A DNA stretch of 25,144 nucleotides from an uncultured Methanosarcinales archaeon (GTDB lineage Archaea; Nanobdellota; Nanobdellia; Woesearchaeales; CAIVOO01): contig CAZAIK010000007.1 in the NCBI GenBank assembly GCA_964485195.1, forward strand, positions 62,001 to 87,144, in the 5' to 3' direction. The translations under genes were made by a program, and so were the position numbers. This document shows positions 1,901 to 20,931 of the stretch, piece after piece; position 1 is the stretch's first letter; every line of letters starts with the position of its first letter. Under the pieces are notes generated by a model. That model was given only the letters and a program-made list of their open reading frames with translations, did no database searches and was not told the origin of the DNA.

Positions 1901-1921
1901 TGTGTGGGTCTCTCTACGCAT

Positions 1922-2800
1922 ATGAAGCGGAAGATAGTGAAACTGGGCCCTGCAACCCTTGTGGTAAGCCTTCCCAGCAGGTGGGCAAAGGAATTCAACC
2001 TTAAGCAGGGGGACGAGCTGGAGCTGGAACAGCAGAATTCTGACCTGCTGATAAGCACGGAAAAGGGCTACAAAATCAAGAAAGAAACAGTAGACCTGAC
2101 TAACATTGATGCCCTTATGAAGAGGATTGTCGCTTCCAAATACCTGAAAGGGGCAGATGAGGTAGAAGTAAAGGTTGATTCTCCTGAAAAGTCAGGGACA
2201 ATCCAGAAGCGGGTGGACGAGATGATTGGAATGGAAATTATTGAGCAGGGCAAGGACAGATTGCTGCTCAAGGACATGGGCTCAAGAGAAGACACCTTTG
2301 ACTCAATCCTGAAAAGGGTTCTGTTTTTGCTAAACCAGGTTTCTGAAGAGTCCCTGAAAGCAATTAAGAACAGGGAAACAGGCCTGCAATACCTTGAGAA
2401 CATGGAATTGAACATCAACAGGTTCACGGACTACTGCTTCAGGCTTCTGAACAAGAAAGGGCATTACAATATCAGGAAAACAGCTGTTTATTACTGCATC
2501 TTGTTTTTGCTTGAGGACCTGGGAGATCATTACAAGAAACTGATTCATAATATTAGCGAAAACAAGGTAAGGCTGAGCAATGATTTGATAAAATTGTATG
2601 AAAAAATAAGGAATTATCACAGGAATTTTGAGAAAATGTTTTTGAAATTCAGCTATGAAGAAGCCATTAACCTTGCGAGAGAAAGAGATAAATTAATCAA
2701 GGAAATAAACAAAATCAAGCAAAGAGACATAGCAAAACATTTTGAAAACATTGTTGAGACAATAATAAAGATTATGGGGCAATTGCTTAATATGAATTAG
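1922..2800 (+). CDS. AbrB/MazE-domain + PhoU-like regulator (archaeal phosphate-uptake-regulator family)
   Basis: N-terminal MKRKIVKLGPATLVVSLPSRWAKEFNLKQGDEL (AbrB fold), IGMEIIEQ, helical C-terminus with E-x-x-INRFTDYCFR and LEDLGDHY. ATG 1922 fits a leaderless start. Confidence 0.88.
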   Translation: MKRKIVKLGPATLVVSLPSRWAKEFNLKQGDELELEQQNSDLLISTEKGYKIKKETVDLTNIDALMKRIVASKYLKGADEVEVKVDSPEKSGTIQKRVDEMIGMEIIEQGKDRLLLKDMGSREDTFDSILKRVLFLLNQVSEESLKAIKNRETGLQYLENMELNINRFTDYCFRLLNKKGHYNIRKTAVYYCILFLLEDLGDHYKKLIHNISENKVRLSNDLIKLYEKIRNYHRNFEKMFLKFSYEEAINLARERDKLIKEINKIKQRDIAKHFENIVETIIKIMGQLLNMN

Positions 2801-4842
2801 GGAATGTTTAACGGCCCTATGCCTGGAAGCTTTTCCATAATGTCCTTAATGCTTTTGCCTTCATCTCCTGAAACTATGTCCTGATAAGTGGGGAAACCTT
2901 CAGGGGGTTTCACGATGCCCGCCATCTTCATACCGTCAAAATACCTTACTCCAGTAAGTGCGTTGTAAGCGAGTTTTCTTGCTTCCTGGGTCACAAGGAA
3001 CGCCTCTTCATTCAACGGCCCGTAGGTTGTGAATTCCATTTTGGGAGTATAGAAATCTATCAGGGCTTTTTCAACGCTTCCGTCGTGTTTGCCAAGCAGC
3101 TGTTTAAGCCTGGCAGTTCCTTTTCGCAGGTTTTCTTCTGCATCAATTTCCTCATATATCTTGGAAGAGACGGGGTCCAGTATGTTTACAGTCGGTGCAT
3201 TGTCCTTGCTCAGTGTTGTGCGCAATCCTGCATAAACCTTGTTGACATTCATGATGCGGATTAACAATGAGGGTTCAAGGCCATTCTCTTCAGCGGTTTG
3301 AATGACTATTGGGTCTCCAGCCTCAAAAGAGCTTTTTGTCTTCCCTGTTATGATGTCTGCCATTGCCTTGGAATAGATGCTCTTAAAATGATTATTATAA
3401 TTCGAAAGATGCCCCGCCTGCATATCCCTAAGGACCTCTTCACTTTCCCTCATCTTTTCTATTTCACTTTTAATTAACAGGCTCCCTCCCATCGCAGCAG
3501 CTGCTGCCAAAGGCACTGCCGCGTCCTTCCCCACCTGAAGGAACCTTCTCCTGCTGATTTCTTTTCCTATGCCTTTAAGGCTCTCTTCAGAATCCTCCTC
3601 AATCAAGTCAACAAGGGGGGTGGCGGGATGCATTGCTTCCTGGGACATCAGCGCGTTGGGGTTGTATTTTGATTTCAGTATCTTAAACCCTTCATCAGGA
3701 ACTTCAGAAACTGCTTCCGGAGCTGTTTTTACAACTTCTTCCAAAAATGCTCCGCTCAGCATTCCCTCATCAACAGCCTTCCTTATCCTTCTTAGAGCGG
3801 AATTGTGCCAGACATTTGCCATTCCCTCCAATTTCTTCCTGACGTCTTCCTGCTTGCCGTCAGCCCTGCCAAGATACCTTTTCACAGCCAGCAATTCCTG
3901 CGTTATCTGGTTCTTTGCAAACCTCCTTGCACTTGCTTCCCGATCTTCAGGATTTTCAAACAGTTTTTGTGAGGCATATCTTGCCAGTTTTTCTTCCAAG
4001 GCTTCATTAATGTCTGATTTCGTCAGTAATTTTCCAATGTCAAATTCAGGAAATCCGTTTGATGCAGCATTTGCCCAGTCAAGGTACACACATCTGCTGT
4101 TTGTAAGAACATTCTTCGGATGCCAGTCCCCGTGGATGTTGTATTTTCCTGCTTCATTCAGCTCATCTGCAATATTTTCCCTGAATAGACTGAACAGGGG
4201 CGAAAGCGGGTCTATGTCCAGGTTGTTGTCGTGGAAAAAAAGGTAAAAGTCCTGCATATCCCCGGGAAAATTCAGTTTCTTGCTTACCTCTTCCCTGTTA
4301 ATGTGGGAGAAAAAGGCAGCGTAGTCATCTATTGCTGATTTCAGCAGCTGCTCTTTCTGCTCTTGTGATGCAGTGTCGAGGGCTTCCTTTAGCGTGGTGC
4401 CCTCAATGTATGGAGTTACCATTATTCTCTGCCTTTTGTTCACGAACTGTGGGGACGGGACTATTCCTTCAAATTGGGTTCCCTGAAGATTCTTGTACAG
4501 CTTTTTCTGCACATTGACAGCTTTTTTGAAGTCCTCTTTTTTTGAGGATTTCTTGATTATGTTTCTGATTTCCGCGTTCTGCGTGATCGGAAGTGCTGCT
4601 TCAATAAGATAAGCGTCCTGTTCAACAGTATTAATTGTGATTTCATCAAGGCACCTGATTTGCGGCTCTAATACTTCAACACCTCTCTGCCTGACCAAGT
4701 CCCTTATCTTTCTAAGCTCAGGCCCGCTAATCTTGCCTGATTCAACCAGCTCTTCCAGTTTTGGATAAATAATCTTGTCTACATAATCCAGTGCCTTTCT
4801 CTTTCCAAGCAATCCTCTCAGCGACAGGTTAATCTCTCCCAT
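2797..4842 (-). CDS. Predicted membrane-anchored APH/choline-kinase-like phosphotransferase with a C-terminal degenerate SLT-like domain (681 aa)
   Basis: MVTPYIEG hinge, HGDWHPKNVL catalytic loop, YLDWA metal-binding motif; SRRRFLQ followed by a hydrophobic segment; AEENGLEPSLLIRIM...DAEENLRKGTARLKQLLGKHDGSVEKALIDFY resembles SLT. The kinase call is firmer than the SLT call. Confidence 0.75.
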   Translation of the reverse strand: MGEINLSLRGLLGKRKALDYVDKIIYPKLEELVESGKISGPELRKIRDLVRQRGVEVLEPQIRCLDEITINTVEQDAYLIEAALPITQNAEIRNIIKKSSKKEDFKKAVNVQKKLYKNLQGTQFEGIVPSPQFVNKRQRIMVTPYIEGTTLKEALDTASQEQKEQLLKSAIDDYAAFFSHINREEVSKKLNFPGDMQDFYLFFHDNNLDIDPLSPLFSLFRENIADELNEAGKYNIHGDWHPKNVLTNSRCVYLDWANAASNGFPEFDIGKLLTKSDINEALEEKLARYASQKLFENPEDREASARRFAKNQITQELLAVKRYLGRADGKQEDVRKKLEGMANVWHNSALRRIRKAVDEGMLSGAFLEEVVKTAPEAVSEVPDEGFKILKSKYNPNALMSQEAMHPATPLVDLIEEDSEESLKGIGKEISRRRFLQVGKDAAVPLAAAAAMGGSLLIKSEIEKMRESEEVLRDMQAGHLSNYNNHFKSIYSKAMADIITGKTKSSFEAGDPIVIQTAEENGLEPSLLIRIMNVNKVYAGLRTTLSKDNAPTVNILDPVSSKIYEEIDAEENLRKGTARLKQLLGKHDGSVEKALIDFYTPKMEFTTYGPLNEEAFLVTQEARKLAYNALTGVRYFDGMKMAGIVKPPEGFPTYQDIVSGDEGKSIKDIMEKLPGIGPLNIP

Positions 4843-4975
4843 TTTTTGCCTCAATGAATTTCTTTACAGAATACTCTATGATGTGGCTCTTGTTCCTGAA
4901 AAGCCCCTCTTCCAGCACTTCCTCCAGCTGTTTCAGGAGCTCTTCTTCCACTGTAATGCTTATTTTGGCCTTCAT
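4829..4975 (-). CDS. Small ribbon-helix-helix (CopG/Arc/MetJ) DNA-binding protein, 48 aa
   Basis: MKAKISITVEEELLKQLEEVLEEGLFRNKSHIIEYSVKKFIEAKNGRD matches the RHH pattern; overlaps the kinase start by 14 nt; TTTATAA about 30 nt upstream. Not in the ORF track. Confidence 0.85.
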   Translation of the reverse strand: MKAKISITVEEELLKQLEEVLEEGLFRNKSHIIEYSVKKFIEAKNGRD

Positions 4976-5086
4976 CAAAGGTAGGATTTTATCACACCCT
5001 TATAAAGGTTTCTGTTTTTAACCACTTTAAAGTAATTAACTCTTGAAAATGCGGCATATTCGCCTTAAAATCACAGCACTTAAATA

Positions 5087-5108
5087 TTAGTATGATTTGT
5101 CATACTAA
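5087..5108. promoter_or_regulatory. Probable operator of the MNT-HEPN operon
   Basis: Perfect 9-bp inverted repeat TTAGTATGA-tttg-TCATACTAA between the TATA box (CTTAAATA 5079-5086) and ATG 5111. Confidence 0.65.
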
Positions 5109-5110
5109 AT

Positions 5111-5650
5111 ATGAATAGGATAAAAGCATTGTTTTTTGAGGAAACAGTCAGAAGATGGCATTTTGAGGATATCTTAGAAGCCAGCGGAATGAGCAGGGAA
5201 AGAGTCAATCATTACCTCAAAGAATTGCTTAAAGAAAAACTCATAATAAGGGTCAAGCCAAGAGGCAAGATGCCTTATTACATTGCCAACAGGGAATCTG
5301 AAAAGTTCCGTTCTGAAAAGAGATTTTATGGTTTAGAATTTCTCAAGAAGACAGGATTGTTTGAGCATATAAGATCCTTAGGTGGAGTTAAGACAGCCAT
5401 ATTGTTCGGAAGTTTCAGCAGGGGCGATTTCGGAAAGTCAAGCGACATAGACATTTTCATCTATGGGGATTCAGAGGGATTTGATAAATCAAGATTTGAG
5501 TTGAAGACAAAAAGAGAAATACAATTATTCAGCTATAAGGATAAGAAAGAGATAAAAAAAGAGCTTGACCCAGGTCTGATTCCGAATATTTTAAAAGGAT
5601 TCAACATAAAGGAGAATATAGAACCGTTCAGAGTTGAGATTAATGCCTAG
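5111..5650 (+). CDS. wHTH + minimal nucleotidyltransferase (MNT/MntA-like antitoxin)
   Basis: N-terminal HTH (FEDILEASGMSRERVNHYLKEL) and GS-X10-DXD motif (LFGSFSRGDFGKSSDIDI). Confidence 0.9.
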   Translation: MNRIKALFFEETVRRWHFEDILEASGMSRERVNHYLKELLKEKLIIRVKPRGKMPYYIANRESEKFRSEKRFYGLEFLKKTGLFEHIRSLGGVKTAILFGSFSRGDFGKSSDIDIFIYGDSEGFDKSRFELKTKREIQLFSYKDKKEIKKELDPGLIPNILKGFNIKENIEPFRVEINA

Positions 5651-6101
5651 AGAAAAGAAACCAGAAGAAGTCTACGACGAGCTCATGGCAGAAGGAGCCT
5701 ATGAAGAAGCCAATCTTGACAGGGAAGAAGTCAGGAAAGTGGTTAAGTTAACAATTGAGGACTATGAGTTCGGAAAAAGCCTGAGAAAACTTAGCAACCC
5801 TAATTGGAGGGTAATATTCAACATAAATTATGATGTTCTCAGGGAATTATGTGACCAGCTAATGAGGTTCAAGAAGCAGAAGGCACGCAACCACCAGGGA
5901 TTGTTCGCATTCATACTCCTTAAATTCCCGGAGTTAGAGCTTGACTGGATTTTCTTTGAGGCAATTAGGACAGCAAGGAACCAAAATAAATATAAGGGAG
6001 CTGACATAACAAAAGAGATGTGGAAGAAAGCAGAGATGCAGATGGACCTGTACATCTCAACTCTGAAGAAAGATATTGAAAAAAGATTGGAAGAGAACTG
6101 A
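5643..6101 (+). CDS. HEPN-like protein paired with MNT
   Basis: All-helical, overlaps the MNT stop; YDVLREL, NHQGL and RTARNQNKY motifs (R-X4-Y rather than R-X4-H). Start placed at ATG 5643. Confidence 0.75.
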   Translation: MPREKKPEEVYDELMAEGAYEEANLDREEVRKVVKLTIEDYEFGKSLRKLSNPNWRVIFNINYDVLRELCDQLMRFKKQKARNHQGLFAFILLKFPELELDWIFFEAIRTARNQNKYKGADITKEMWKKAEMQMDLYISTLKKDIEKRLEEN

Positions 6102-6240
6102 TTCTTAAAAGATTCTGCATATCTTAGTATTTTACGCATTTATAAACCTTTAGAATCCTAAAACACCCGAATCCTGGCCTTTCCAAGCCAGGCTCACAGG
6201 ATGCAGAATCTATAAATATGAGATTATCCCAACAAGCAGG

Positions 6241-6471
6241 ATGGGAAACAGGCTATTCAGGAAAGGGCCGGATTCAAGCAACCTTCTGGCACTGATAAGG
6301 GAGTCAAGGAGATATCAGGAGATGACAAATGAAGAACTACAGCAAAAAATGGAAAAATACGAACGCTCTTTCTGCTACCAGATGAGGAATATTCTTAGTC
6401 TTGAACAGCCGGTGAAATACAGGGCGATGAGATATGAAATAAGGGAAAGAACAAAAGAAAAAATAAAATAA
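6241..6471 (+). CDS. Small basic hypothetical protein, 76 aa
   Basis: Fills the intergenic gap; TATAAATA at 6211, 30 nt before the ATG. Confidence 0.6.
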   Translation: MGNRLFRKGPDSSNLLALIRESRRYQEMTNEELQQKMEKYERSFCYQMRNILSLEQPVKYRAMRYEIRERTKEKIK

Positions 6472-6475
6472 AAAA

Positions 6476-7597: not shown

Positions 7598-7720
7598 TTT
7601 CCACCTCCAAGTTGTAACTACTTGATGATGACTAGAAACATATACATATATTAAATACTTTTTTCACAAAAACCTTATGTTTGCGTAATATTTATATATA
7701 AGTAACACATATGCTAAAAA

Positions 7721-8683
7721 ATGGCCTTAAAACTGGACGTAAAGGACAAGAAAATCCTTGCCCTGCTGGATGAAAATGCGAGATACAGCAACAGCCAGAT
7801 AGCCAGGAAGGTGGGGCTGAGCAAGCCGGCAGTTGAGTACAGGATCAGGAGGCTGCAGAAAAACAATGCCATCCTTGAATTTTACACCCTGATAGATTTC
7901 AACAAGCTGGGCTATTCCCAGTACAAGATTTATCTCAAGCTTCAGGACGCCACACTTGATGATGAGAAAAAGATAATTGATTACTGGACCGGACAAAAAA
8001 ACATAGTGTGGATTGCCCAAATAAGAGGTCCTTATGATTTAACAGTCTCTGTGCTTGCAGAGAACAACTTTGAGTTCGGGAGGATACTCTCAAACTTTAT
8101 GAATAAATTCTCCCGGTTCATACTTGAAAAGGACGTGCTTATGACAGAGTACTCCCCCATCTATCCAAGGGAGTATCTAACAGAAACAAGCCCTTCAGAA
8201 TTCGTATATGGAATCCCAACAGAAAAATATGAACTGGACGAGGCAGACAGAAAAATCTTGAGGGCCTTGTCAACTAATGCGAGAATTCCTGTTGTTGAGC
8301 TTGCGGAAAAAACAGGCCTGACCAGGGACATAGTCAATTACAGGCTCAGGAAACTGAAAAAGGATAAAATCATATTCCAGTTCAGGTGCTTCCCAAACTT
8401 TTCAAACATTGGCATGATGTTTTACAAGCTAGTCCTGAGAACAAAGAATTTCAATGAGGAATATGAGAGGAAGATAAAGCAATACATCGCCCAGCACAAG
8501 AAAGCCACGCAGCTTCTGAAACTGATAGGCTCCTGGGATCTTGAGATAGAGTTTGAAGTTGAGAATGAAGATGAGCTTTACAAGCATTTAACAGAGATAA
8601 GAAAGAAATTCTCAGATGTTATAAGGGATTTTGACATCATAAGGATAACAGAAACCCACAAATACAATTTTTTTCCTTTTTGA
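7721..8683 (+). CDS. Lrp/AsnC-family regulator with two tandem HTH-RAM units
   Basis: LDVKDKKILALLDENARYSNSQIARKVGLS...GPYDL and LDEADRKILRALSTNARIPVVELAEKTGLT...GSWDL; divergent from the binding-protein gene; TTTATATA at 7691. Confidence 0.92.
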   Translation: MALKLDVKDKKILALLDENARYSNSQIARKVGLSKPAVEYRIRRLQKNNAILEFYTLIDFNKLGYSQYKIYLKLQDATLDDEKKIIDYWTGQKNIVWIAQIRGPYDLTVSVLAENNFEFGRILSNFMNKFSRFILEKDVLMTEYSPIYPREYLTETSPSEFVYGIPTEKYELDEADRKILRALSTNARIPVVELAEKTGLTRDIVNYRLRKLKKDKIIFQFRCFPNFSNIGMMFYKLVLRTKNFNEEYERKIKQYIAQHKKATQLLKLIGSWDLEIEFEVENEDELYKHLTEIRKKFSDVIRDFDIIRITETHKYNFFPF

Positions 8684-8695
8684 GAACAGTGTTGC

Positions 8696-8786
8696 TGTTA
8701 GCGCGCTCCGTATTCATTGTTAATTGTTGTTTATCTGAATTATTCTCTTTCGCTTCTGCAACGGAGAACTTCGCTCGGCGCTAACA
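8696..8786. repeat. Nested inverted-repeat element between convergent genes
   Basis: TGTTAGCGC (8696-8704) / GCGCTAACA (8778-8786) and inner CTCCGT (8706-8711) / ACGGAG (8761-8766). Confidence 0.6.
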
Positions 8787-8792
8787 TCTTTA

Positions 8793-9512: not shown

Positions 9513-9636
9513 AGTGCAGGAAAGCGCGCCCTTTTTTTAAATACTTTATTATTAGTTAAGCCCTTTGCCTTTATGTCATTACTATACGATAACAAAAGGG
9601 GAAAACTTTATAAAACAATGCTAAACAACAAAATTT

Positions 9637-10964: not shown

Positions 10965-11019
10965 CCTGCCTGAAAGGCAACAGGGGTTTAATAATGTTCT
11001 GCCAAAAAACACCAATACC

Positions 11020-11782: not shown

Positions 11783-11783
11783 A

Positions 11784-12221
11784 ATGAGCAAAAAGCCATC
11801 AGGAATAAGGGCAGCAAAAAAGCTTGAGAGCAGAAGGAACAAGTTCAGGTGGTCCAACAAGTGGTATACCAAAAGGACTTTGGGGCTTGACAAGAAGTCA
11901 GACCCACTGAAAGGCTCTGCCCAGGCAAAAGGCATTGTGCTGGAAAAGGTGCAGCTGGAGGCAAAACAGCCGAACTCAGCTATGAGAAAGTGCGTGAGGG
12001 TCCAGCTGATAAAGAACGGAAAGCAGATAACAGCATTCGCTCCAGGAGACGGGGCAATCAAGCTCATAGACGAACACGACGAGGTCGTGGTGGAGTGCAT
12101 CGGAGGAAAGATGGGGAGGTCTATGGGAGACATTCCCGGAGTGCGATGGCAAGTCATAAAAGTAAATGACCAGTCCCTGGAAGCATTAAGAAGAGGAAAA
12201 ATAGAGAAGGCAAGAAAATAA
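11784..12221 (+). CDS. rps12: 30S ribosomal protein S12 (uS12)
   Basis: [38 protein letters not shown]. Confidence 0.98.
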
Positions 12222-12820
12222 TGGCAGATATAAAGGCATTCAACAAGTGGGGAACAGAAGGGATAAAGGTTGAGGATCCCGGACTGAAAGATTACATCAA
12301 CCTGGAACCCAAAATCGTGCCAAAAACAGGCGCAAGATACGCAGGAAACAGGTTCCACAAGTCAAGGATATTCATTGTTGAAAGGCTGATAAACAAGGTG
12401 ATGCTCCCCGGGCACAAGGGAAAGAAGCACAACAAGAGCTCGGGCCACTGCACAGGAAAGGCAAACACAGCTTTTCAGGTTGTTGAGGAGACCTTCAGGA
12501 TAATAGAGAAAAAGCTCAACAAGAACCCTGTTGAGGTCTTTGTGAAAGCAATTGAAAACGCAGCTCCCAGGGAGGAACTTGTCACCATAGAATACGGAGG
12601 CGCGCGGTATCCCAAGGCAGTTGAGTGCGCTCCCCAGAGAAGAATTGATTTAGTGCTGAGATATTTCGTGCAGGGGGCATACCAGAAATCCTTTGGAAAG
12701 AAGAAAAGCGCAGAAAGCGCGCTGGCAGACGAGATAATAGCCGCATACCAGCTAAGCCCGAACTCAAACGCAATAGCGAAAAAGAACGAGTTGGAAAGGC
12801 AGGCAGATGCTTCGCGCTAG
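12221..12820 (+). CDS. rps7: 30S ribosomal protein S7 (uS7)
   Basis: IVERLINK, NPVEVFVKAIENAAPREE, APQRRID, LADEIIAA, KKNELERQADASR. Confidence 0.98.
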   Translation: MADIKAFNKWGTEGIKVEDPGLKDYINLEPKIVPKTGARYAGNRFHKSRIFIVERLINKVMLPGHKGKKHNKSSGHCTGKANTAFQVVEETFRIIEKKLNKNPVEVFVKAIENAAPREELVTIEYGGARYPKAVECAPQRRIDLVLRYFVQGAYQKSFGKKKSAESALADEIIAAYQLSPNSNAIAKKNELERQADASR

Positions 12821-14148
12821 TAGAGGAACCTGCCCTGAAAGTCAGGGGATATCTCTCTTTTCATAACTTCTCCATTCTTTGTTTTTACGAGGAGCTTGAA
12901 ATCATCTTTCAACCCTCTCCCTGCATTGTGGGCGAGTATAGCGCAGGGGTTATTTCTTGGGTAAAATCCTGCGATATTAACTATATTGTCAATATGGAAT
13001 TTATATTTCCTCTCAAGAAGCAGAAATACTGAATCTTGCGCATCCGGATTTATATTTCTTAAGCGGAGATATTCCATACTCTTGGGCCTGGTGGAAAAAC
13101 TTCTGAATTCAAAACCAAAATCCTGAGTTTTATGTGCGTTTAAGGGCAAATCCCCATAGTATAAAAAGACATAATTACCGAGAAAATAAGCATTTATCTT
13201 TTGTCGCGCATAATCCTTGTTCACATATATGCGTTCTTCACTGTTGTCTGTTATTGGATGTCTGAATCTTAAATTTCCATAGCTGTCAAGGGTTCTGGGC
13301 CATTTTCCTTCTAAAATCAGGCCGGCTCCCTGCCCTTCAAAAACTTCAGGACGCTCTTGCCACTTTGAAATCAGATAATTTTCAGCTTGGGACAAAAAAC
13401 TGCTTTTAGCAAAATTCCTTGATTCATCCAGTAATAAATCAAAATTGGAACTTTTTCTTTCAGCTTCCGAGGGTAGCAAGGCGATTTTTTCATTGAAAAA
13501 GTTATAAGCATAATGAGCGCCCCTATTGAATACCAATATCATAAATCTTCCCCTTCTTTTTTTAGCGTAGTAATTCTCTCCCAGTATTTTAATATTCTTT
13601 TTTACACCAAGCGGTCTTAATTCAATACCAGAGCATTTATTCAAAAAAGGTTCTTTCATAACCCTGTATGTGAAAAACTCTCCTGGCGCTCTTATCTTTT
13701 TTTCATGTATCTCACCGTATAATTCAAATCTCACAACAGCTTCATTAACCCCTCCTGCTGACAAGCGGGGATTAATCTCAACAACACTTTCAAGCGATTT
13801 CCCATAAGAAGGGGAACTAAGAATAAAATGTCTATTTCCGCAAAGATGAATCAACTTCCGTTGGTAAATCCTGCCTCCTTTCCCCTTAAAAACCGAGTGC
13901 CGGGTACCTATTTTGAATTTGCCTGAGACTAAAGCTCCCCTCTTTTTTGGATTTTCTGTATCAAAATCTATTATCAGGTGTTCCAATGCAGGCGCAAGAA
14001 AATTTGGAAAGTGTATTCCATCATCCCACAGCATTTGGTGGAAATCCACGCAGAATCTTTCTCTTTTTTTAGCATTTTCCTTCAGTTGCTTTAATAATGT
14101 TTGCTCTTTTTTTATTAATCTTTCCAGTTCTCCGGTACCTGTCCGCAT
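12817..14148 (-). CDS. Basic, beta-rich hypothetical protein, 443 aa
   Basis: Long ORF, last gene of the minus-strand operon, visibly more AT-rich than its neighbours. Confidence 0.75.
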   Translation of the reverse strand: MRTGTGELERLIKKEQTLLKQLKENAKKRERFCVDFHQMLWDDGIHFPNFLAPALEHLIIDFDTENPKKRGALVSGKFKIGTRHSVFKGKGGRIYQRKLIHLCGNRHFILSSPSYGKSLESVVEINPRLSAGGVNEAVVRFELYGEIHEKKIRAPGEFFTYRVMKEPFLNKCSGIELRPLGVKKNIKILGENYYAKKRRGRFMILVFNRGAHYAYNFFNEKIALLPSEAERKSSNFDLLLDESRNFAKSSFLSQAENYLISKWQERPEVFEGQGAGLILEGKWPRTLDSYGNLRFRHPITDNSEERIYVNKDYARQKINAYFLGNYVFLYYGDLPLNAHKTQDFGFEFRSFSTRPKSMEYLRLRNINPDAQDSVFLLLERKYKFHIDNIVNIAGFYPRNNPCAILAHNAGRGLKDDFKLLVKTKNGEVMKREISPDFQGRFLY

Positions 14149-14161
14149 TTTTTTGATTCAC

Positions 14162-15274
14162 TCACCACTTCGCACTCCACATCACGTAACCATAACTTTC
14201 CCCCTTGCTTCCCTCTTCCTGCCTGTAAACTGCCCTGAAATTTCTGTAGTCATAGCCCACTCCTGCAGTGGTTGATGTTTCTGTTTCATTGCCTGTTCTT
14301 GTCCGGTTCCATTCAGCCCCGACAAAGAAATTCCTGAATGGTTCTGGGCTTTCTACATACGCAAGAGGGTAAAGTGCCGTGTCCGCATTTATGCTCTCGG
14401 TGTTTTGAGAGCTGTCAGCTGAATGCGTTATTTCAGCACCCCAACCCCTTGTGTAATGGGTAGGCAGGAACCATTCAGCAACTCCTGCATTTTCACAGGG
14501 GGCAATGGGATACTCAGGAACTACACCGGCGTTGGTAAGCCCTCCTTCCCTCGGGGCGATGGGGTAATAAGCATCCGATTCATACAGGAGGTCGCTTGAA
14601 AGGATTATTTGTTGCAACGTTTTCTCTGCAGTGGGCTCCCAGTAAAGTTTTACCCTGTAGCCAAAGCTTCCTGTTTCATTTAATGCGACAATTCCGTACC
14701 ACTGGCTTTCCTCAGAAAGCTTGTAGCCAATTCCGAAATGATGCTCCTGCCCGGTGAAGTTGACTGCCCCGTTAACAATGGTTTCAATGTCATCCTCTAT
14801 GACAGTATTGTAAAGTCCTCCCTCTATTCTCACTCCTTTCTTTTCAATGTGCCCCTGCAATCCATAATGTGTTGTGTTGGCATTGTTCTTTGTCAGGGAT
14901 TCAACAATGGGGCCGAGGGAATGGTTGCAGTCAAAGAAGAATCTCAGCCTGGCTCCCAGGGCGCTTTGCTCTTTTTCCTCTGCCCCGGTCAATTCTGCCC
15001 TCAGCCACTTGTCTCCGTCAAAATAAACAGGAACCCTTGCCGCAGCCAGGTTTCTGTTATTTGTTTCTCCGCCAAGCTCTTCCTGCTGCTGCTCTCCCCC
15101 GAAGAAGAGGTTTTCATCATAAACCCCGAGCCTTGCCCCTCTCATCCTGAACTCACTGGCAGGCCTGTTGCTGAAGGCGAAAGCTGCGTCTGTTTTCGGC
15201 TCTGCCGTGGCGTTTCCGGCGGCAAACAAGGAAAGCATTGCCGCGCTGACTCCAGCAACAATAATCTTTTTCAT
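14162..15274 (-). CDS. Secreted protein with an outer-membrane beta-barrel-like pattern, 370 aa
   Basis: Signal peptide ending ATA|EP; many short amphipathic Gly/aromatic strands; C-terminal YGYVMWSAKW. Confidence 0.65.
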   Translation of the reverse strand: MKKIIVAGVSAAMLSLFAAGNATAEPKTDAAFAFSNRPASEFRMRGARLGVYDENLFFGGEQQQEELGGETNNRNLAAARVPVYFDGDKWLRAELTGAEEKEQSALGARLRFFFDCNHSLGPIVESLTKNNANTTHYGLQGHIEKKGVRIEGGLYNTVIEDDIETIVNGAVNFTGQEHHFGIGYKLSEESQWYGIVALNETGSFGYRVKLYWEPTAEKTLQQIILSSDLLYESDAYYPIAPREGGLTNAGVVPEYPIAPCENAGVAEWFLPTHYTRGWGAEITHSADSSQNTESINADTALYPLAYVESPEPFRNFFVGAEWNRTRTGNETETSTTAGVGYDYRNFRAVYRQEEGSKGESYGYVMWSAKW

Positions 15275-15276
15275 TT

Positions 15277-15891
15277 TTATCTGGTTTTTAGATGGTCATA
15301 ATACTCCTTTATGTCTAAGAAAAGCTGTTCAAGCCCTTTCGTATCGCAGATAGCTGTTTGTCCTGAATAAACCACCTCTTCAGGCGTGGTGGTTACATCA
15401 AAACCATTAGAATAAAACCTCCCTCTAAACCAGTCAACAAATTTTGGTTCAATAACTTCTGATAGCAAGGTTCTAATATTCCCGTATAACCCAAGTTGGC
15501 CACGATTAAGATGAAGATTCAATATTGGATGTGTAAATTTTGGTTGTCTTAAATAAGGTGAAACATTAGGAAGGTTCAGGGTTGTTCTAACACGCTCATC
15601 AACCCTGTTGATATTTACGAAAAGAGCATCCCAACTGCCGGGGCAGCTAGCAGGAAGCGCAGAAAGTGAAGTGGAAATTATCTCATCATAAACACTTCTC
15701 ATCCTCTTTGTTACTTTAAACCTTTTTTCGCTGATTTCAGGATGAGTTTCAGAGAATACTGCGCGGTTATGAGAAACATCAGAGCTGGTTAATCCAGCTT
15801 CAACTGCGGCTTTTCTGAACACCTTCCATTCCTCACCGGCAATTGCCTGTATGAGAGGGGATTCATCCTCCCAGAATGTTTGCTCAGTCAT
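15277..15891 (-). CDS. Hypothetical protein, 204 aa; possible distant paralog of 16327-17278
   Basis: ATG 15891 overlaps the upstream stop (ATGACTGA); AAVEAGL and DTKGLEQLFLDIKEY resemble the paralog motifs. Confidence 0.75.
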   Translation of the reverse strand: MTEQTFWEDESPLIQAIAGEEWKVFRKAAVEAGLTSSDVSHNRAVFSETHPEISEKRFKVTKRMRSVYDEIISTSLSALPASCPGSWDALFVNINRVDERVRTTLNLPNVSPYLRQPKFTHPILNLHLNRGQLGLYGNIRTLLSEVIEPKFVDWFRGRFYSNGFDVTTTPEEVVYSGQTAICDTKGLEQLFLDIKEYYDHLKTR

Positions 15892-16330
15892 TTCCTTCCT
15901 CCAGATTATCTTCAATTGAGCTTTTTGCAATCACTCGTTCTCTCGCACCCCTCCATTTTTCATAACCATAAGAAGCAAGGTTTGTCAGGGCAGGAATTGC
16001 CAGGGCTTCGCCATGCCCTCTCTGAATTGCATAACTATAAGCAGATATCTGAGCAACAACCAAAAGACAACCAGCTAAAACACCTAATCCTCCACATACT
16101 TTTTTATTCTCAGCGTCTAATAACAACCCTACGTTTATTAACGGCTCTATCCTTCTCTTATATGCTGGGATTGTATAAGGAATGGTAGCACATATTCCCG
16201 CAACTTTCAACGCAGTGCTAAAATCTGTCAGATGTTTCTTTTTACTCTGAAAGGAGTTCTTCAACTGCTCCTTGCTGCCCTGCAACAGCTCTTCCAGAAC
16301 TTCCCTGTTTGTTGGTTTGTATTCAGTCAT
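15884..16330 (-). CDS. Hypothetical membrane protein, 148 aa
   Basis: Hydrophobic segments GGLGVLAGCLLVVAQISAYSYAI and ALAIPALTNLASYGYE; ATGA overlap with the upstream gene. Confidence 0.78.
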   Translation of the reverse strand: MTEYKPTNREVLEELLQGSKEQLKNSFQSKKKHLTDFSTALKVAGICATIPYTIPAYKRRIEPLINVGLLLDAENKKVCGGLGVLAGCLLVVAQISAYSYAIQRGHGEALAIPALTNLASYGYEKWRGARERVIAKSSIEDNLEEGND

Positions 16331-16827
16331 TGTTTACCTTCCAGCAGTTTGTCCAGATCTGATATGTCCTGTAATACTGCTTCCAGTTTTTCTACTGTAT
16401 CAGCAGATGCTCTGCTGTTGTACCTAATCCAGCCGTTCATATTAACGAAAGCGCCCATACCCATGTTGTACCCCCTCTCTGCAAAAAAATCCCTTGCCTT
16501 GATAAGTTCAGAACATCTTTTAATAGCTTCTTCAGGAGTGCAAACTTTAACAAGGCTTGTTGAAATAATCAGCCTTAAATTTGAAACATAGTCAAGGTAT
16601 GAATATGGAGCTGGCAAATAGCTGAACTGGTCAGGCGTAAAATTAACTTTCATAAGATGTTCTGTTTTTGTAGAATCAAAACAAAATTTGCCTAAATCAA
16701 AAAGAGTTTCATTTGGTCTCCCATCTGTATATGCTAATCCATATTTTACAGCCAAATTTTCATAAAATTTGTGTTGCGAAAATTTTTCTTCTGATTCGGG
16801 TTCCTTAAGCTTGTCGCGTATTTTCAT
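16327..16827 (-). CDS. Hypothetical protein, 166 aa (tandem paralog B)
   Basis: Shares FYE..A.K.GLAY, ARDF...RGY.M and LE.VLQDISDLD.LLE with the upstream gene. Confidence 0.82.
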   Translation of the reverse strand: MKIRDKLKEPESEEKFSQHKFYENLAVKYGLAYTDGRPNETLFDLGKFCFDSTKTEHLMKVNFTPDQFSYLPAPYSYLDYVSNLRLIISTSLVKVCTPEEAIKRCSELIKARDFFAERGYNMGMGAFVNMNGWIRYNSRASADTVEKLEAVLQDISDLDKLLEGKQ

Positions 16828-17278
16828 TTTCCAATAACCTATCCAGGTCAGAAATGTCCTGCAGGACTTTTTCCAGTTGCTTGACTGTTTTTACTTTCAG
16901 ATACTTGTCCCTGTATGTGCAGAAGCCGGAATCCGTTGGGCTCAGCTCCATATGGTAGCCTCTTCCTATGAGAAAGTCCCTCGCCCTGATCATCTCAAGG
17001 CTTATTTCCATTGCTTTTTCCGGAGCGCAGTTTTCACGAATTGCTGTAGCAATAAAAAGCGGCAGGTTACGAAACCTTATCCGAGGCGGGGAAAATTCTG
17101 CTCTGATGAGATGCTTGTCCTTGGGGTCAAAATAAAATCTTCCATAACCTGAAGAACTTTTAGCAAATTCATATGCAAGACCGTGCTTTGCAGCGGCAGC
17201 TTCATAAAAAACATCTTCTGAAACCCCTTTCTCTTCAAGTTCCTTAAGCTTGCTTAACAGCTGTGTCATTTTAACCAT
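16805..17278 (-). CDS. Hypothetical protein, 157 aa (tandem paralog A)
   Basis: First gene of the operon; same shared motifs as paralog B; the start could be the second Met. Confidence 0.82.
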   Translation of the reverse strand: MVKMTQLLSKLKELEEKGVSEDVFYEAAAAKHGLAYEFAKSSSGYGRFYFDPKDKHLIRAEFSPPRIRFRNLPLFIATAIRENCAPEKAMEISLEMIRARDFLIGRGYHMELSPTDSGFCTYRDKYLKVKTVKQLEKVLQDISDLDRLLENENTRQA

Positions 17279-17282
17279 AAAA

Positions 17283-17329
17283 GGAGTGGCAGCCCTTAGA
17301 AAGGGCAGTCAGCTGGAATTTACCACTCC
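17283..17329 (-). promoter_or_regulatory. Structured 5' leader of the minus-strand operon
   Basis: Transcript GGAGUGGUA...GCCCUU-UCU-AAGGGC-UGCCACUCC-UUUU-AUG; minus-strand TATAAATA at 17360-17367. Confidence 0.5.
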
Positions 17330-17407
17330 CCAGTTTTTACTGAATATTCACATAGAATATATTTATACTTTCTTATTAAAGTATATAAATTAGTATATTT
17401 AGTTTAA

Positions 17408-17429
17408 ATAAAATAGCAAAGTTTATATA
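17408..17429 (+). promoter_or_regulatory. BRE/TATA promoter of the second AbrB-PhoU regulator
   Basis: ATAAAATAGCAAAGTTTATATA, nearly identical to 1879-1900. Confidence 0.6.
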
Positions 17430-17478
17430 ATAGCAAGATTTTTATATTTTCACTTAGAAACAGATTTCGCCAAATGCT

Positions 17479-17518
17479 TGAGCGAAAAGCCCCCAGCGAG
17501 CTTTTTGCTCATTTTTTT
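17479..17518 (+). terminator. Terminator-like hairpin plus T-tract in the leader of the second AbrB-PhoU gene
   Basis: TGAGCGAAAAGC (17479-17490) / GCTTTTTGCTCA (17500-17511), 12 bp with one G-U pair, followed by T7. Confidence 0.55.
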
Positions 17519-17527
17519 GTTTAACAA

Positions 17528-18427
17528 ATGAAAAGAAGCATTGTCAAGCAGGGAGCGGCCACTTTAATGGTTTCTTTGCCGTCAAAATGGGCCAGGAAGT
17601 TCCATCTCACCAAAGGGGATGAGATTGACGTAGTTGAAAAGGGCAAGGAACTTCTGATAACGCCTGAACTCGTGCCTGAAACAAGAAAGGCAACAATCAA
17701 TATTTCTGAACTGGAAACTTTGTGGAGAAGGGCAGTCCGCGCATTGTATTGTGCAGGATATGATGAGATTGAAATACAATTCAGCAAGTCCGGCGAGATA
17801 AAGAATGTTTATTCAATCCTGCAGGAATTCGTGGGATTCGAGATAATAAGCCAGAAGGAAAACAGCTGCACAATAAGGGAGATAGTGGAGACAAAGGAGA
17901 CCAATTTCAGGACGATACTGAGCAGGACTTTCAATATGCTTTCCTCAATTGCAGAGGACTGCTCAAATGCCCTCAAGGAGAAAAACACGGAACTGCTCAG
18001 GACAATTTCCGAGAGGGATTTGATAATAAACAAGTACTCAAACTTCTGCATCAGGATAATTAACAAGGGGCTGGTGGAGCAGGAAAACGCGCCGATGCTT
18101 TACTACATCATACTGCAGATAGAGGCACTGGGGGACATGTACAAGGAACTGTCAAAATACCTGTCTGAGAAAAACAAGATACCATCCGTAAGCTCCATTA
18201 AAATATTTGATGAGATAACATCCTTAATAGGGGATTTCCATTCTGTCTTGAACAGGTTTGACAATAAAACAGTCCTCCTGTTTGAACAGAAATTAAGGAA
18301 AACAAGGAAATCAATAGAGTCGGTAAAGACAACTTCAATCCAGGAAGTCCAGATAATAAATTACCTTTCGCAGATGAGGGAAATCCTTTATGGGCTTGTG
18401 GAGCCGTTGCTCACTCAGAATCTCTAG
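17528..18427 (+). CDS. AbrB/MazE-domain + PhoU-like regulator (paralog of 1922-2800)
   Basis: MKRSIVKQGAATLMVSLPSKWARKFHLTKGDEI, LYCAGYDEIEI, VGFEIISQ, INKYSNFCIR, IEALGDMY. Confidence 0.88.
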   Translation: MKRSIVKQGAATLMVSLPSKWARKFHLTKGDEIDVVEKGKELLITPELVPETRKATINISELETLWRRAVRALYCAGYDEIEIQFSKSGEIKNVYSILQEFVGFEIISQKENSCTIREIVETKETNFRTILSRTFNMLSSIAEDCSNALKEKNTELLRTISERDLIINKYSNFCIRIINKGLVEQENAPMLYYIILQIEALGDMYKELSKYLSEKNKIPSVSSIKIFDEITSLIGDFHSVLNRFDNKTVLLFEQKLRKTRKSIESVKTTSIQEVQIINYLSQMREILYGLVEPLLTQNL

Positions 18428-20768
18428 GCTGCCATCTCTCTGCCCAGTTATGGTTCTCAGTCAAAAAATCATTTTGCACAAGCCACGGCACCATTACATA
18501 TTCCCAGGAATAATCCTCCCCTGAGCTGATCCACCCTTTCTTGGTCTCCCTGAAAGGGGCGGCATCCTCTGCCATAAAAGGATGGAATGCAATTGCCCTT
18601 TCTGTAAGTTCCCTTGCAATCTCAGGGAGGTATTCGCTGTAATCTTCATAACTAACGCTTCCTGCCTTTCTCTGTGCCGTGTCAAGAGTTTCAGGTCCCG
18701 CAAACAATCTTGCGTAAATGTCTATGGGATATCCCGTGCCCGGAACTGTCATTGCCTGCATTCCGACGCTGATGATTTCAAAATCCCTCTGGGGCTTTTC
18801 AGCCCAGTATTCATTTTCTTCTTCCTCATCCCCTCTCACTTTATTGATATAATTAATGGTTTCAAGAGGCAGTGTCAGGACATTGCCAAAATAATCATTT
18901 TCCCTTGCCCTCCCCTTTAATTCAGGGCTTGAAAGAGAAGCACTGATTGCCGCTCTCAAATATTGCGGCGGCAGGCCCCAGTCTGAACTCATTCTCATTG
19001 CGTGGGAGTCCGCATTTCTTTTGTCGCCAATCACAGGAGGCCTTTTATAGTCGCAGCCGAACAGGTAGTTATATTCTGTGAGGCCTTTGCTGAGATTCAT
19101 TGTTATGATGTATTCCTTCAGGTATTTTGCAACCTGCTCGTTTTTCTCTGCTTCATCACATCCCTTTGTCTGCCCGTGCAGCCTGCAGTAGTCAAAATCC
19201 GAGCCAGAGACAAGCTTCTGGATTTCAGCCCAGCTAGGCCTGGCATTAAGATATTCCATATAGCTGTGCTCTTCTGATTTGGGAGCAAATGATGCTATTA
19301 ACGCAGCTCCTCCGATAAATGCTGCCAGGCCAAGCCCCACAGCCACAGGACTCTTGACATAGTCCCACGCTCTCTTAGTCCAGGGCTCTGGCTCAAAAAT
19401 GAATTCAGGAATGTGCACTTTTGACCTCATTCTCTTGAGGTCCATCACAGTTGCATAGTCCTTTGAGTCAATGCCAAGCTCAGTTTCAAGTTTTGCGTAA
19501 TCGCCATCATCCAGCCTGGGACGTTTTGACTTTTCTGATATTTCCCGCATTTCAGAGTCCATCCCCAAATTTCCAAGGTCGGCAAGGGCCCTGTTGAAAT
19601 AAAGCAGGGCAATGTCTTCAAGCAGTTTTTTATTCTCCTTGAAATAAGGCCTTTTTGCCCTTTCCAAAAACCTATTGGCCCTTGTCAGGTTCTGCACAGG
19701 CCTCTCCAGCTCATACCTTGCAACAAAACCTTCAATAAATGTTTTCTCGCCGTGCTTTCTGTTCCCTTTCTGCTCAACAAAAATCTTTCTTGCAGCGTGC
19801 TCAACAAGCTTTCTTTCCTCGGGCTGGAAACTCCCCATTTTTTCAAGGTAGCCGTGTAGCAGGCTGAATATGGGTCCGCAGGTGAGCCCGTCCAGGTCGC
19901 ACACCTTTGCCTTTCCTGTGCTTGAATCTATTATTGTGTTTGATGTCCTGGGGTCCTCTGGCATAATGAATTTCTGCTCCTTCCCTGTCCTGAACCTTTT
20001 CGCAATGTTTTTTGCATTCTCTTTGGGCATTTCAGGGCAGAGCTCCCTGACGGCATATAGCATCTGCTGCTCCAGCCCCGGCTGTCGGGAAAAAACATGC
20101 CTTTGCCTGTGATAAAGCGCCTCGTCAAAATCCCGTTTGAAGACATTTTTGTTTCTCGTCAGCAAAAATGCAAGGCTGAGGTTAACATTCAGTCCCTTAA
20201 GGACTGCGTCGTCTTTTTGTGTCTTGGCGTGCTGAAGAATGTTCTCTCCTGAATGCGAATAAGTCACTGTTGAATTCTTTTCATCTGCGCCTATTGGGGG
20301 AATGGTTAAATTGTCAATATCCTCTATCCTGCTCATTCTTCTCACAAGGTCAAGGTGCTTTTTCATCTCCTTTGGGTCAGAATATTTTTTAATGAAGTTC
20401 TGGACAGCGAGGCCGGGAAGAAATATTGTTTCAGTGAAATACCCTCCTCCGCCGTAATAAGCCTGCTTTCCCACAAACAATTCATCCTTTGAGAACGTGG
20501 GGAAACCTGTTCTGGAGGATAGTGCAGATTCAATCTCTTTCCTTTGCTCCTGGGTGAGTTTTTCAATGTTTTTCTCCACTGCCTGGATTATGGCCCTGTT
20601 GTTCCTGTCTGCTGTGAAAAAAGGAAGCAAATCCCTTGTTTTCAGGGCGTGCCTGGCAGCAACCTCTGCCGGAATATTTTCAGACCTGAGCAGTTCCATA
20701 TCTTCCCTGTAAATCCTCTGTAGTTCTTCATAGCTCAAATCTGCCAGGTTTTCCAGGTTCTCAGTCAT
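18411..20768 (-). CDS. Predicted membrane-anchored divergent kinase-like protein with a C-terminal degenerate SLT/MltD-like domain (785 aa)
   Basis: FIKKY, PEDPRTSNTII (D-x4-N), VCDLD; TM VAVGLGLAAFIGGAALIASFA; WGLPPQYLRAAI and LFAGPETLDTAQRKAGS...YLPEIARE; mid-region homologous to 2797-4842. Confidence 0.68.
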   Translation of the reverse strand: MTENLENLADLSYEELQRIYREDMELLRSENIPAEVAARHALKTRDLLPFFTADRNNRAIIQAVEKNIEKLTQEQRKEIESALSSRTGFPTFSKDELFVGKQAYYGGGGYFTETIFLPGLAVQNFIKKYSDPKEMKKHLDLVRRMSRIEDIDNLTIPPIGADEKNSTVTYSHSGENILQHAKTQKDDAVLKGLNVNLSLAFLLTRNKNVFKRDFDEALYHRQRHVFSRQPGLEQQMLYAVRELCPEMPKENAKNIAKRFRTGKEQKFIMPEDPRTSNTIIDSSTGKAKVCDLDGLTCGPIFSLLHGYLEKMGSFQPEERKLVEHAARKIFVEQKGNRKHGEKTFIEGFVARYELERPVQNLTRANRFLERAKRPYFKENKKLLEDIALLYFNRALADLGNLGMDSEMREISEKSKRPRLDDGDYAKLETELGIDSKDYATVMDLKRMRSKVHIPEFIFEPEPWTKRAWDYVKSPVAVGLGLAAFIGGAALIASFAPKSEEHSYMEYLNARPSWAEIQKLVSGSDFDYCRLHGQTKGCDEAEKNEQVAKYLKEYIITMNLSKGLTEYNYLFGCDYKRPPVIGDKRNADSHAMRMSSDWGLPPQYLRAAISASLSSPELKGRARENDYFGNVLTLPLETINYINKVRGDEEEENEYWAEKPQRDFEIISVGMQAMTVPGTGYPIDIYARLFAGPETLDTAQRKAGSVSYEDYSEYLPEIARELTERAIAFHPFMAEDAAPFRETKKGWISSGEDYSWEYVMVPWLVQNDFLTENHNWAERWQPRDSE

Positions 20769-20931
20769 TTTCCGGCTCCCTGACCACGTCTATGGTCAAT
20801 TTTACTACTGTTTTCGGCCTTAATTCCTCCTTCAGAAGTGTAGGTATGACTATGATGGCCTGTTTTCCGTGTTTTGCTATTCTTTTTGTTATTGTAAAGC
20901 TTTTAAGGCTTTTTATGGCTTTTTCTTCCAT
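20761..20931 (-). CDS. Small AbrB/MazE-like swapped-hairpin DNA-binding protein, 56 aa
   Basis: MEEKAIKSLKSFTITKRIAKHGKQAIIVIPTLLKEELRPKTVVKLTIDVVREPEND; ATGACTGA overlap with the 785-aa gene. Not in the ORF track. Confidence 0.82.
   Translation of the reverse strand: MEEKAIKSLKSFTITKRIAKHGKQAIIVIPTLLKEELRPKTVVKLTIDVVREPEND

Follow-up and report, generated by a model that had tools for sequence, protein, structure and literature searches.

Do two similarly arranged loci in one archaeal genome encode copies of the same signalling device, in which a receptor kinase acts on a transcription factor encoded beside it? The question is raised by a stretch of 25,144 nucleotides (nt; the window) on contig CAZAIK010000007.1, from a Woesearchaeota-like genome of 1.13 Mb that is 99.5% complete. 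A sequence-only reading of the window had described a three-gene module occurring twice: an AbrB-PhoU regulator gene converges on the gene of a kinase with a soluble lytic transglycosylase (SLT) domain, which is itself preceded by the gene of a small DNA-binding partner. The open reading frames (ORFs) concerned are listed below, with protein lengths in amino acids (aa) and RHH standing for ribbon-helix-helix.

1922..2800, plus strand: AbrB-PhoU regulator 1, with an N-terminal AbrB/SpoVT swapped-hairpin domain followed by two PhoU repeats
2797..4842, minus strand: kinase 1, 681 aa from ATG 4842 (685 aa from TTG 4854), PF01636
4829..4975, minus strand: small ORF 1, RHH-like, 49 aa from ATG 4975 (ORF open to 4978), PF01402 under the cut-off
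17528..18427, plus strand: AbrB-PhoU regulator 2, PF04014 E 2e-7 and PF01895 E 0.0029
18411..20768, minus strand: kinase 2, 785 aa, with profile homology to the kinase-1 family
20761..20931, minus strand: small ORF 2, 56 aa, overlapping the start of kinase 2, with a 76% identical orthologue in the congener G001

The ORF listing and searches with Pfam and NCBIfam bore out the common layout: at both loci a plus-strand AbrB-PhoU gene lies tail-to-tail with a large minus-strand gene, the start of which is overlapped by a small ORF. The tail-to-tail overlaps are indeed 4 nt (2797-2800, TTAG) and 17 nt (18411-18427). Small ORF and kinase gene overlap by 14 nt in module 1 (26 nt with TTG 4854 as the kinase start) and by 8 nt in module 2. 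The repetition of this layout is genuine and not a product of chance. Four AbrB-PhoU paralogues are encoded in the genome, and three of them converge on its three largest kinase-like genes, out of about 10 kinase-like genes altogether. The third copy (module 3; contig C4, L008 2349-6285) consists of a gene for a 46-aa RHH protein (PF01402, E 1.1e-5), which overlaps the gene of a 754-aa Hanks-type kinase (PF00069, E 9.7e-26) lacking a membrane segment, and a convergent AbrB-PhoU gene at a 0-nt gap. The fourth paralogue lies among aminoacyl-tRNA synthetase genes with no kinase adjoining. On balance, we lean towards regarding loci 1 and 2 and the C4 copy as paralogous signalling cassettes, conserved in Woesearchaeota-type DPANN archaea, in which the kinase probably controls the AbrB-PhoU transcription factor.

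The claim that the large proteins are repeat copies held in part. They show no BLASTP similarity (E 0.092), and neither kinase retrieves the other in a search of the genome, but profiles reveal them to be homologous, in the kinase-like domain only. An iterative profile started from kinase 2 takes in kinase 1 in round one (E 1.5e-6), and the kinase-2 and kinase-1 families were aligned by hhalign at 97.6% (E 2.7e-12, 288 columns). The catalytic stretches align with each other, HGDWHPKN...LDW of kinase 1 with PEDPRTSN...CDLD of kinase 2 (D-x4-N and the metal-binding Asp), and a 33-sequence alignment of the kinase domain has one invariant Asp together with one Asp and one Asn that are at least 90% conserved. 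Kinase 1 comprises a kinase-like domain with the aminoglycoside phosphotransferase (APH) fold at 3736-4623 (PF01636, 25.9 bits against a cut-off of 23.2), a hydrophobic anchor near 3466-3522 and a degenerate SLT ectodomain at 2800-3468. Pfam gives no match for kinase 2, whose divergent APH-fold kinase-like domain lies at 19488-20456, with the transmembrane segment at 19290-19346 and the 291-aa ectodomain, which carries a conserved Cys pair, at 18414-19286. Both large proteins are accordingly built, as far as can be predicted, from an N-terminal APH-fold kinase-like domain, one hydrophobic segment and a C-terminal outer domain. Close relatives are few: a single-protein search with kinase 1 found none in the 40 relatives searched and 3 in an index of 5.8 billion proteins, and kinase 2 has an orthologue only in G001 among the same 40, with none in the index. 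A twin-arginine-like motif, SRRRFLQ (3520-3560, about residues 427-440 of kinase 1), was seen mid-protein directly ahead of the Ala-rich membrane anchor; it is retained in the close relatives P0002 and P0003 and not in L010-L012.

Conservation of the pairing was examined starting from the regulator. A total of 419 AbrB-PhoU matches were obtained in contigs from one genome per species, labelled Woese-, Pace- or Nanoarchaeota in the public records, and 80 loci were examined; an AbrB-PhoU ORF could be called in 78 of these and in neither L049 nor L055. In 41/78 loci a convergent ORF of 440 aa or more comes first downstream; of 55 large downstream neighbours, 22 match APH or Pkinase in Pfam at E<=1e-3. 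An APH-like profile built up from kinase 2 converged on 38 proteins, with no drift to pyruvate kinase, pyruvate phosphate dikinase or Hanks kinases, and a second kinase profile covered 8 Hanks-type neighbours. A kinase-like gene occupies the +1 position at 33 of the 78 AbrB-PhoU loci, convergent in 32, compared with 10 of 938 ORFs at other positions; this profile-based enrichment is partly circular, which counts against it, since the profiles were trained on the same neighbours. A Pfam-only control at E<=1e-5 gave 15/55 large downstream neighbours versus 3/78 other ORFs of at least 440 aa (Fisher p = 1.5e-4; 78 of 86 control ORFs were within the size limit), and two of the three control matches are tandem kinases of a single cassette, L045.

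The converse survey started from the kinase. Thirty kinase loci from an order-wide sample were examined, 29 of them outside the window's own genome, and an AbrB-PhoU neighbour was found at 20 of the 29 (18 within the 1.5 kb flank and 2 more by coordinates). Across five near-complete genomes, 4/5 APH-like and 2/15 PF00069 matches adjoin an AbrB-PhoU gene. A sample of 121 genomes of the order yielded an APH-like match in 41 genomes and AbrB-PhoU in 110, the latter with 398 matches. The sequence-only reading had held that the repeat would be coincidental if kinase homologs elsewhere showed no enrichment of AbrB-PhoU or small regulator neighbours; an enrichment of the AbrB-PhoU/kinase pairing was found in both directions. 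Comparative evidence supports the proposed signalling cassette as an AbrB-PhoU/kinase pairing, present three times in the genome, and not the small regulator as a general member. The core of the cassette is a kinase of the protein-kinase-like superfamily and an AbrB-PhoU gene, nearly always tail-to-tail.

Most of the APH-like partners in the relatives are cytoplasmic, with tetratricopeptide repeats (TPR) before a C-terminal kinase domain; the two in the window represent a membrane-receptor form. Module 3 and 7 related loci have Hanks-type domains in the same position. That two kinase families, APH-like and Hanks-type, share one position speaks for a role as protein kinases and for a pairing under selection. 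No conserved partner was found upstream of the kinases, where the genes encode TrmB, AlaE, SecDF, Kae1 or NUDIX proteins or lack an assignment. At two loci (L050 10764-11723 and L076 8423-9382) Kae1/TsaD stands directly upstream of a kinase of ~946 aa, with TPR and an APH-like domain, that faces AbrB-PhoU, an arrangement that recalls the Kae1-Bud32 pairing.

A working model can be outlined for the window's cassettes. The kinases would be single-pass proteins with the kinase domain inside the cell and the sensor domain outside, and binding of a ligand outside would alter kinase activity inside. The kinase would then phosphorylate, or dock onto, the neighbouring AbrB-PhoU protein, and binding of the AbrB domain at an AT-rich divergent promoter module would change, together with expression of the regulator and the divergent genes. 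The genes regulated here would be those of amino-acid-binding lipoproteins and a secreted-protein operon, and in most relatives that of an Lrp/AsnC regulator. We propose this outside-to-gene pathway because the pairing is fixed in both directions, it survived a swap of kinase family, the catalytic residues are intact and there are published precedents. The sequences themselves show the gene architecture, the domain homologies, the lost catalytic residue of the SLT domain and the linkage in both directions; protein-kinase activity, AbrB-PhoU as its target, the ligand and the regulated genes are predictions. The features on the divergent side of the two regulators are the following.

641..1777, minus strand: Peripla_BP_6 solute-binding lipoprotein, divergent from AbrB-PhoU 1 (PF13458, E 8.9e-64; lipobox LAGC)
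1-639: second Peripla_BP_6 copy (PF13458), continuing beyond the window edge
1812..1921, plus strand: divergent promoter region of AbrB-PhoU 1, with a TFB recognition element and TATA box (BRE/TATA) at 1881-1900
12817..17278, minus strand: six-gene operon divergent from AbrB-PhoU 2, with a signal-peptide protein
17350..17527, plus strand: promoter and ~80-nt leader of AbrB-PhoU 2, with BRE/TATA at 17410-17429 and a second copy at 17427-17446

Each AbrB-PhoU gene is therefore divergent from genes of exported proteins, as had been noted: two Peripla_BP_6 genes in module 1, one with a lipobox, and in module 2 the operon with the signal-peptide protein. Binding-protein genes are also divergent from a regulator of the PhoU1 type in L011, L012 and L014, and module 2 with its divergent operon is partly syntenic in G001. 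The suggested control of surface genes fits modules 1 and 2 on these grounds; it does not extend to most relatives, where the divergent gene is of the Lrp/AsnC type, as it also is for the AbrB-PhoU gene of module 3. Within the operon, the 370-aa signal-peptide protein (14162-15274, minus strand) ends in an aromatic residue, reminiscent of a bacterial outer-membrane beta-barrel; it matches no Pfam or NCBIfam family and is 51% identical to its counterpart in G001. Two adjacent paralogous proteins of ~160 aa (16327-17278, minus strand; 39% identical), of no known family, are encoded at the head of the operon.

The position of BRE/TATA at AbrB-PhoU 1 suggests that its mRNA is probably leaderless. 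The leader of AbrB-PhoU 2 contains a stable hairpin at about 17479-17511, within 17471-17519, followed by a T-run just before the start codon (-18.7 kcal/mol, z -3.13); its sequence is conserved in G001, and it may be an attenuator-like element. Among the relatives, the 8-mer ACCTTATA occurs upstream of 16/75 AbrB-PhoU genes versus 2/773 other upstream regions. A ~70-bp AT-rich module, from a distal TATA-like box to the proximal BRE/TATA, is common to 20 relatives, and its skeleton can be aligned with the two window promoters; the 20 sequences were picked for holding enriched words and the region is AT-rich. The word ACCTTATA itself is absent from both window promoters. A second candidate, AAAATAGCAAnnTTTATATA, is found at both AbrB-PhoU promoters (3 in the window against 0.04 expected) and was rejected as a specific operator on account of ~20 near-matches genome-wide. 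The pattern AAAATAG[C/T/A]AA-N2-TTTATATA recurs ~20 times in the genome with <=2 mismatches and looks like the organism's general BRE/TATA consensus.

The bias in the choice of promoter sequences and the missing 8-mer weigh against the proposed pathway, and other observations do so as well. No kinase is found at +1 in 45/78 AbrB-PhoU loci, and only 6 of the 23 AbrB-PhoU paralogues in the five near-complete genomes are kinase-linked. On a quick tree of the AbrB-PhoU proteins (ORFs <250 aa, e.g. that of L010, excluded), the kinase label is clustered but scattered, with 23 changes versus a shuffled mean of 33.6. Of the 44 loci tested for the divergent gene, 34 have an Lrp/AsnC regulator there, and a small RHH partner is no general part of the cassette. 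Neither the kinase-2 ectodomain nor small ORF 2 has an assigned fold. Their convergent orientation means that the kinase and regulator genes are not transcribed together. Most enzymes of the APH family are kinases of small molecules, and the link between kinase and regulator is one that we infer from sequence patterns.

The regulators themselves are well defined. Their identity as AbrB-PhoU proteins, given in the sequence-only reading, was confirmed by PF04014 scores of 33.2 and 31.3 bits against a cut-off of 24.7, with the match in AbrB-PhoU 1 (E 4.9e-8) at the N-terminus; paralogue 3 reaches 42.2 bits. AbrB-PhoU 1 and 2 are paralogues (BLASTP, 31% identity over 272 aa, E 2e-44), and alignment with paralogues favours ATG 1922 as the start of the former, the ORF of which is open from GTG 1904. 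The orthologue of AbrB-PhoU 2 in G001 is 59% identical. The single-sequence score for PF01895 is under the cut-off (18.4 against 23.5 bits), and a 77-sequence AbrB-PhoU profile matches the PhoU structures 2i0m (E 1.5e-7), 4q25 and 1t72, in two stretches each; within the PhoU part, E198 and D202 are conserved. The Pfam scan found no pst genes in the window, in agreement with the earlier claim, and no phosphate-specific transport (Pst) system is recognisable in the whole 99.5%-complete genome, where the best PstB match reaches 139.5 bits (cut-off 343.2) and a search with PF12849 revealed no PstS-type protein. None of the four proteins with PhoU domains is therefore a Pst accessory, and the PhoU domain here works outside phosphate transport.

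Signalling could also run the other way, with the PhoU domain modulating the kinase, possibly reporting phosphate or metal status, and the AbrB domain tethering the complex to DNA. Bacterial PhoU is reported to suppress PhoR autophosphorylation via the PAS domain (PMC13577022, PMC9239213), and such a relation would suit the conserved PhoU repeats and E...D motif as well as a pairing that persists through a change of kinase family. The kinases in the cassettes are not histidine kinases, though, Pfam detected no PAS domain in them, and there is no Pst system to supply a phosphate signal. We consider this reverse relation unlikely.

The outer domain of kinase 1 provides the clearest indication of what a receptor of this type might recognise. 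Alignment by hhalign relates this ectodomain to SLT domains at 98.3% (E 1.4e-14). Pfam gave no SLT match for it; among the ectodomains scanned only that of L012 matched, weakly, at 14.5 bits (E 0.026) against a cut-off of 21.3. The SLT motifs are replaced throughout in kinase 1: the catalytic Glu-Ser by Asn-Lys, GLMQ by NILD and AYNAG by FYTP. A four-sequence profile of the ectodomain found 269 matches at E<=1e-3 among 1.84 billion representatives. The top ~45 share the architecture of kinase 1, and 15 of 20 scanned carry an N-terminal APH or, once, Pkinase domain; 51/53 scanned among the lower-ranking matches are canonical SLT proteins (PF01464). The arrangement of kinase, hydrophobic segment and pseudo-SLT domain was found in 41 cluster representatives, with the hydrophobic segment just before the domain in 33/41. 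At the position of the catalytic Glu, 42 receptor-type sequences have Asn (35), Ser (4), His (2) or Thr (1) and never Glu; the only sequences with Glu there are 6 canonical long SLT proteins. By these residues the kinase-1 outer domain is a dead SLT, predicted to be at most a binding domain and not an enzyme, and its most likely role is to bind, without cleaving them, strands of a glycan such as peptidoglycan or a similar wall polymer.

For kinase 1 the SLT label thus stands, in the sense of a degenerate domain that lacks the catalytic Glu; for kinase 2 it is unsupported. By hhalign the kinase-2 ectodomain reaches 6.7% with SLT and 9.5% with the receptor-type domain, and a short motif likeness seen by eye was discounted; it has no significant match in Pfam, PHROGs, PDB or the ESM Atlas. 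The ESM Atlas likewise held no usable match for the kinase-1 ectodomain, and a sequence search of the PDB with the full-length kinase-1 family returned nothing. Two canonical SLT-domain genes over the Pfam cut-off are present in the same genome (C2:89972-90283 and C1:169488-169862). A related genome encodes an 863-aa protein (L015 14-2605) with a GH25 lysozyme domain, another wall-degrading enzyme of the lineage.

An outer domain derived from a glycan-cleaving enzyme would also be in keeping with APH-fold domains that act as small-molecule kinases, for instance on a wall-derived sugar or amino sugar, with AbrB-PhoU as a local regulator sensing the phosphorylated product or phosphate. The 33-sequence kinase-domain profile matches the solved structures of APH(2'')-Id, choline kinases, YihE and bacterial Ser/Thr kinases of the PknB type; the best of these relatives are the aminoglycoside and choline kinases, and Pfam assigns kinase 1 to APH and not to Pkinase. 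Yet YihE and the PknB-type enzymes in the same list are protein kinases, Hanks-type domains hold the same position in module 3 and the 7 related loci, and a membrane anchor with an outward sensor would have no obvious logic for a small-molecule enzyme. We regard this explanation as quite improbable.

Return to the pairing itself raises the possibility that kinase and regulator are neighbours with no functional link, through inherited synteny that overlapping 3' ends make costly to break in compact genomes. DPANN genomes are compact, junction overlaps of 4 nt or slightly more are common in the related loci, and many AbrB-PhoU paralogues have no kinase neighbour. Inherited synteny of this kind is nevertheless very unlikely to explain a pairing that spans >100 GTDB families at ~30% protein identity, is multiplied into several paralogues per genome, involves two kinase families and exists also in a co-directional form (G028:C4, G022, G032 and G127), while the genes on the kinase's other flank vary. 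A signalling cassette in which the kinase controls AbrB-PhoU remains our preferred reading.

The small upstream ORFs proved to be the variable part. The proposed small DNA-binding partner is plausible for number 1, which is RHH-like; it found no backing for number 2, which has no match in Pfam, NCBIfam, PHROGs or PDB. The two are unrelated, with nothing significant by BLASTP. Small ORF 1 scores below the PF01402 cut-off (E 0.0076, 16.6 against 20.5 bits) and is 45% identical to the RHH protein of module 3; that protein (25.6 bits) and the relative in L045 (24.5 bits) exceed the cut-off. Orthologues of small ORF 1 stand upstream of the kinase-1 orthologues in L010-L012. Small ORF 2 is, on the evidence of its 76% identical counterpart in the same position in G001, predicted with confidence to be a real gene; it was tried as an AbrB-type domain and the idea set aside as unsupported (hhalign, 0.9%). 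RHH-like ORFs were counted at 7 independent loci (kinase 1, L010, L011, L012, module 3, L045 and L085), where L092 is apparently the same genome as L010 and an eighth match, L006, points away from the kinase operon. The RHH-like ORF in L085 precedes a 569-aa protein recognised neither by Pfam nor by the kinase profiles. Since RHH proteins are restricted to these loci and the genes upstream of the kinases vary, the core of the cassette is the kinase and the AbrB-PhoU gene. L045 (4360-9625) has an arrangement of its own, in which three Hanks-type kinase genes (731, 482 and 496 aa) stand in tandem behind a single RHH gene and the whole row faces a single convergent AbrB-PhoU gene.

A toxin-antitoxin or anti-virus defence module, with a small RHH or AbrB-type antitoxin and a kinase toxin, would be in line with a small overlapping upstream RHH-fold ORF reminiscent of type II operons, an AbrB domain whose Pfam family is named MazE_antitoxin and a module-3 kinase that matches PADLOC kinase models, but it is exceedingly improbable and was rejected on the PADLOC result: 0/6 window proteins match, the module-3 matches are to generic Ser/Thr kinases, the window's kinases are membrane receptors of 685-785 aa, the small ORF is missing from most cassettes, and the cassette is chromosomal and syntenic, not patchy.

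Several known systems resemble the proposed kinase-to-regulator cassette in part. The Hanks kinases PrkC, PrkD and YabT of Bacillus subtilis are reported to phosphorylate AbrB (PMC6213207), and PrkC is described as detecting wall fragments via PASTA repeats (PMC4478028). Like PrkC as presented in these reports, the window's receptors would be single-pass membrane kinases with an outward domain related to wall recognition and an AbrB-fold factor as the proposed target. Unlike PrkC, they have an APH-like kinase domain (Hanks-type only in module 3) and, in kinase 1, a dead SLT domain as the sensor instead of PASTA; PhoU repeats are part of their regulator, whose gene is a fixed convergent neighbour of the kinase gene, the organism is an archaeon, and phosphorylation is presumed. 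The bacterial PhoU-PhoR-PstSCAB system also ties a PhoU-domain protein to a sensor kinase, with PhoU reported to bind the PAS domain of PhoR (PMC13577022, PMC9239213). It differs in that Pst transporter, histidine kinase and response regulator are all missing here, the PhoU part shares a protein with a DNA-binding AbrB domain, and four paralogues are encoded in a 1.13-Mb genome.

The kinase-1 ectodomain is homologous to the SLT lytic transglycosylases (PF01464), from which it differs by the loss of Glu-Ser and by its place in a fusion, C-terminal to a kinase domain and a membrane anchor. Giant extracellular SLT-domain proteins of DPANN archaea (Woese- and Pacearchaeota) are described in PMC8204110, and the accessible part of that paper describes no fusion of a kinase to SLT. 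With the APH and choline-kinase-like phosphotransferases (PF01636), including YihE/SrkA, the cassette kinases share the fold and the catalytic loop D-x4-N ... D; they are set apart as large multidomain proteins, membrane-anchored or TPR-fused, in a fixed pairing with a transcription factor. TK2245 of Thermococcus kodakarensis, an archaeal SpoVT/AbrB-PhoU protein, has the same two-domain architecture, by annotation only. It is listed among chromosome-associated proteins, and the portion of the report at hand gives no function or kinase link for it (PMC7325993). A literature search, with subscription journals mostly outside its coverage, found no report of an AbrB-PhoU/kinase pairing or of a kinase-SLT fusion. 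The cassette appears to represent an as yet undescribed means by which archaea of this kind perceive their surroundings.

A bolder version of this reading can be put forward tentatively, and we hold it to be rather doubtful as a whole. It proposes lineage-wide, one-step transmembrane signalling in which the dead-SLT ectodomain would detect the wall glycan of a bacterial (or pseudomurein-bearing) partner and the APH-fold kinase would phosphorylate its dedicated AbrB-PhoU protein. If true, archaea would have a counterpart of the PASTA-kinase pathway, and host recognition by these symbionts would become directly accessible.

DPANN archaea are largely without classical two-component systems, and to our knowledge almost nothing is known of how they sense their partners or surroundings. 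A fixed pair of kinase and transcription factor, with several copies per ~1-Mb genome, is a candidate for their main signal-transduction device. The APH-fold domain would take a role usually held by Hanks kinases, and the pseudo-SLT ectodomain offers a concrete ligand hypothesis, namely cell-wall glycans. Such a ligand agrees with the proposal, made in PMC8204110, that small Woese- and Pacearchaeota interact with bacterial walls. The window contributes a genome with three copies, the APH-fold variant of a receptor kinase, a sensor shown at the sequence level to be a dead SLT, the absence of Pst and enrichment counts in two directions.

Two further arrangements were seen between the modules. 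A nucleotidyltransferase gene (PF01909) overlaps a 155-aa ORF without a family (5111-6101, plus strand), in a layout like that of minimal nucleotidyltransferase pairs. The 320-aa protein encoded at 7721-8683 (plus strand) carries two helix-turn-helix domains of the Lrp/AsnC type in tandem.

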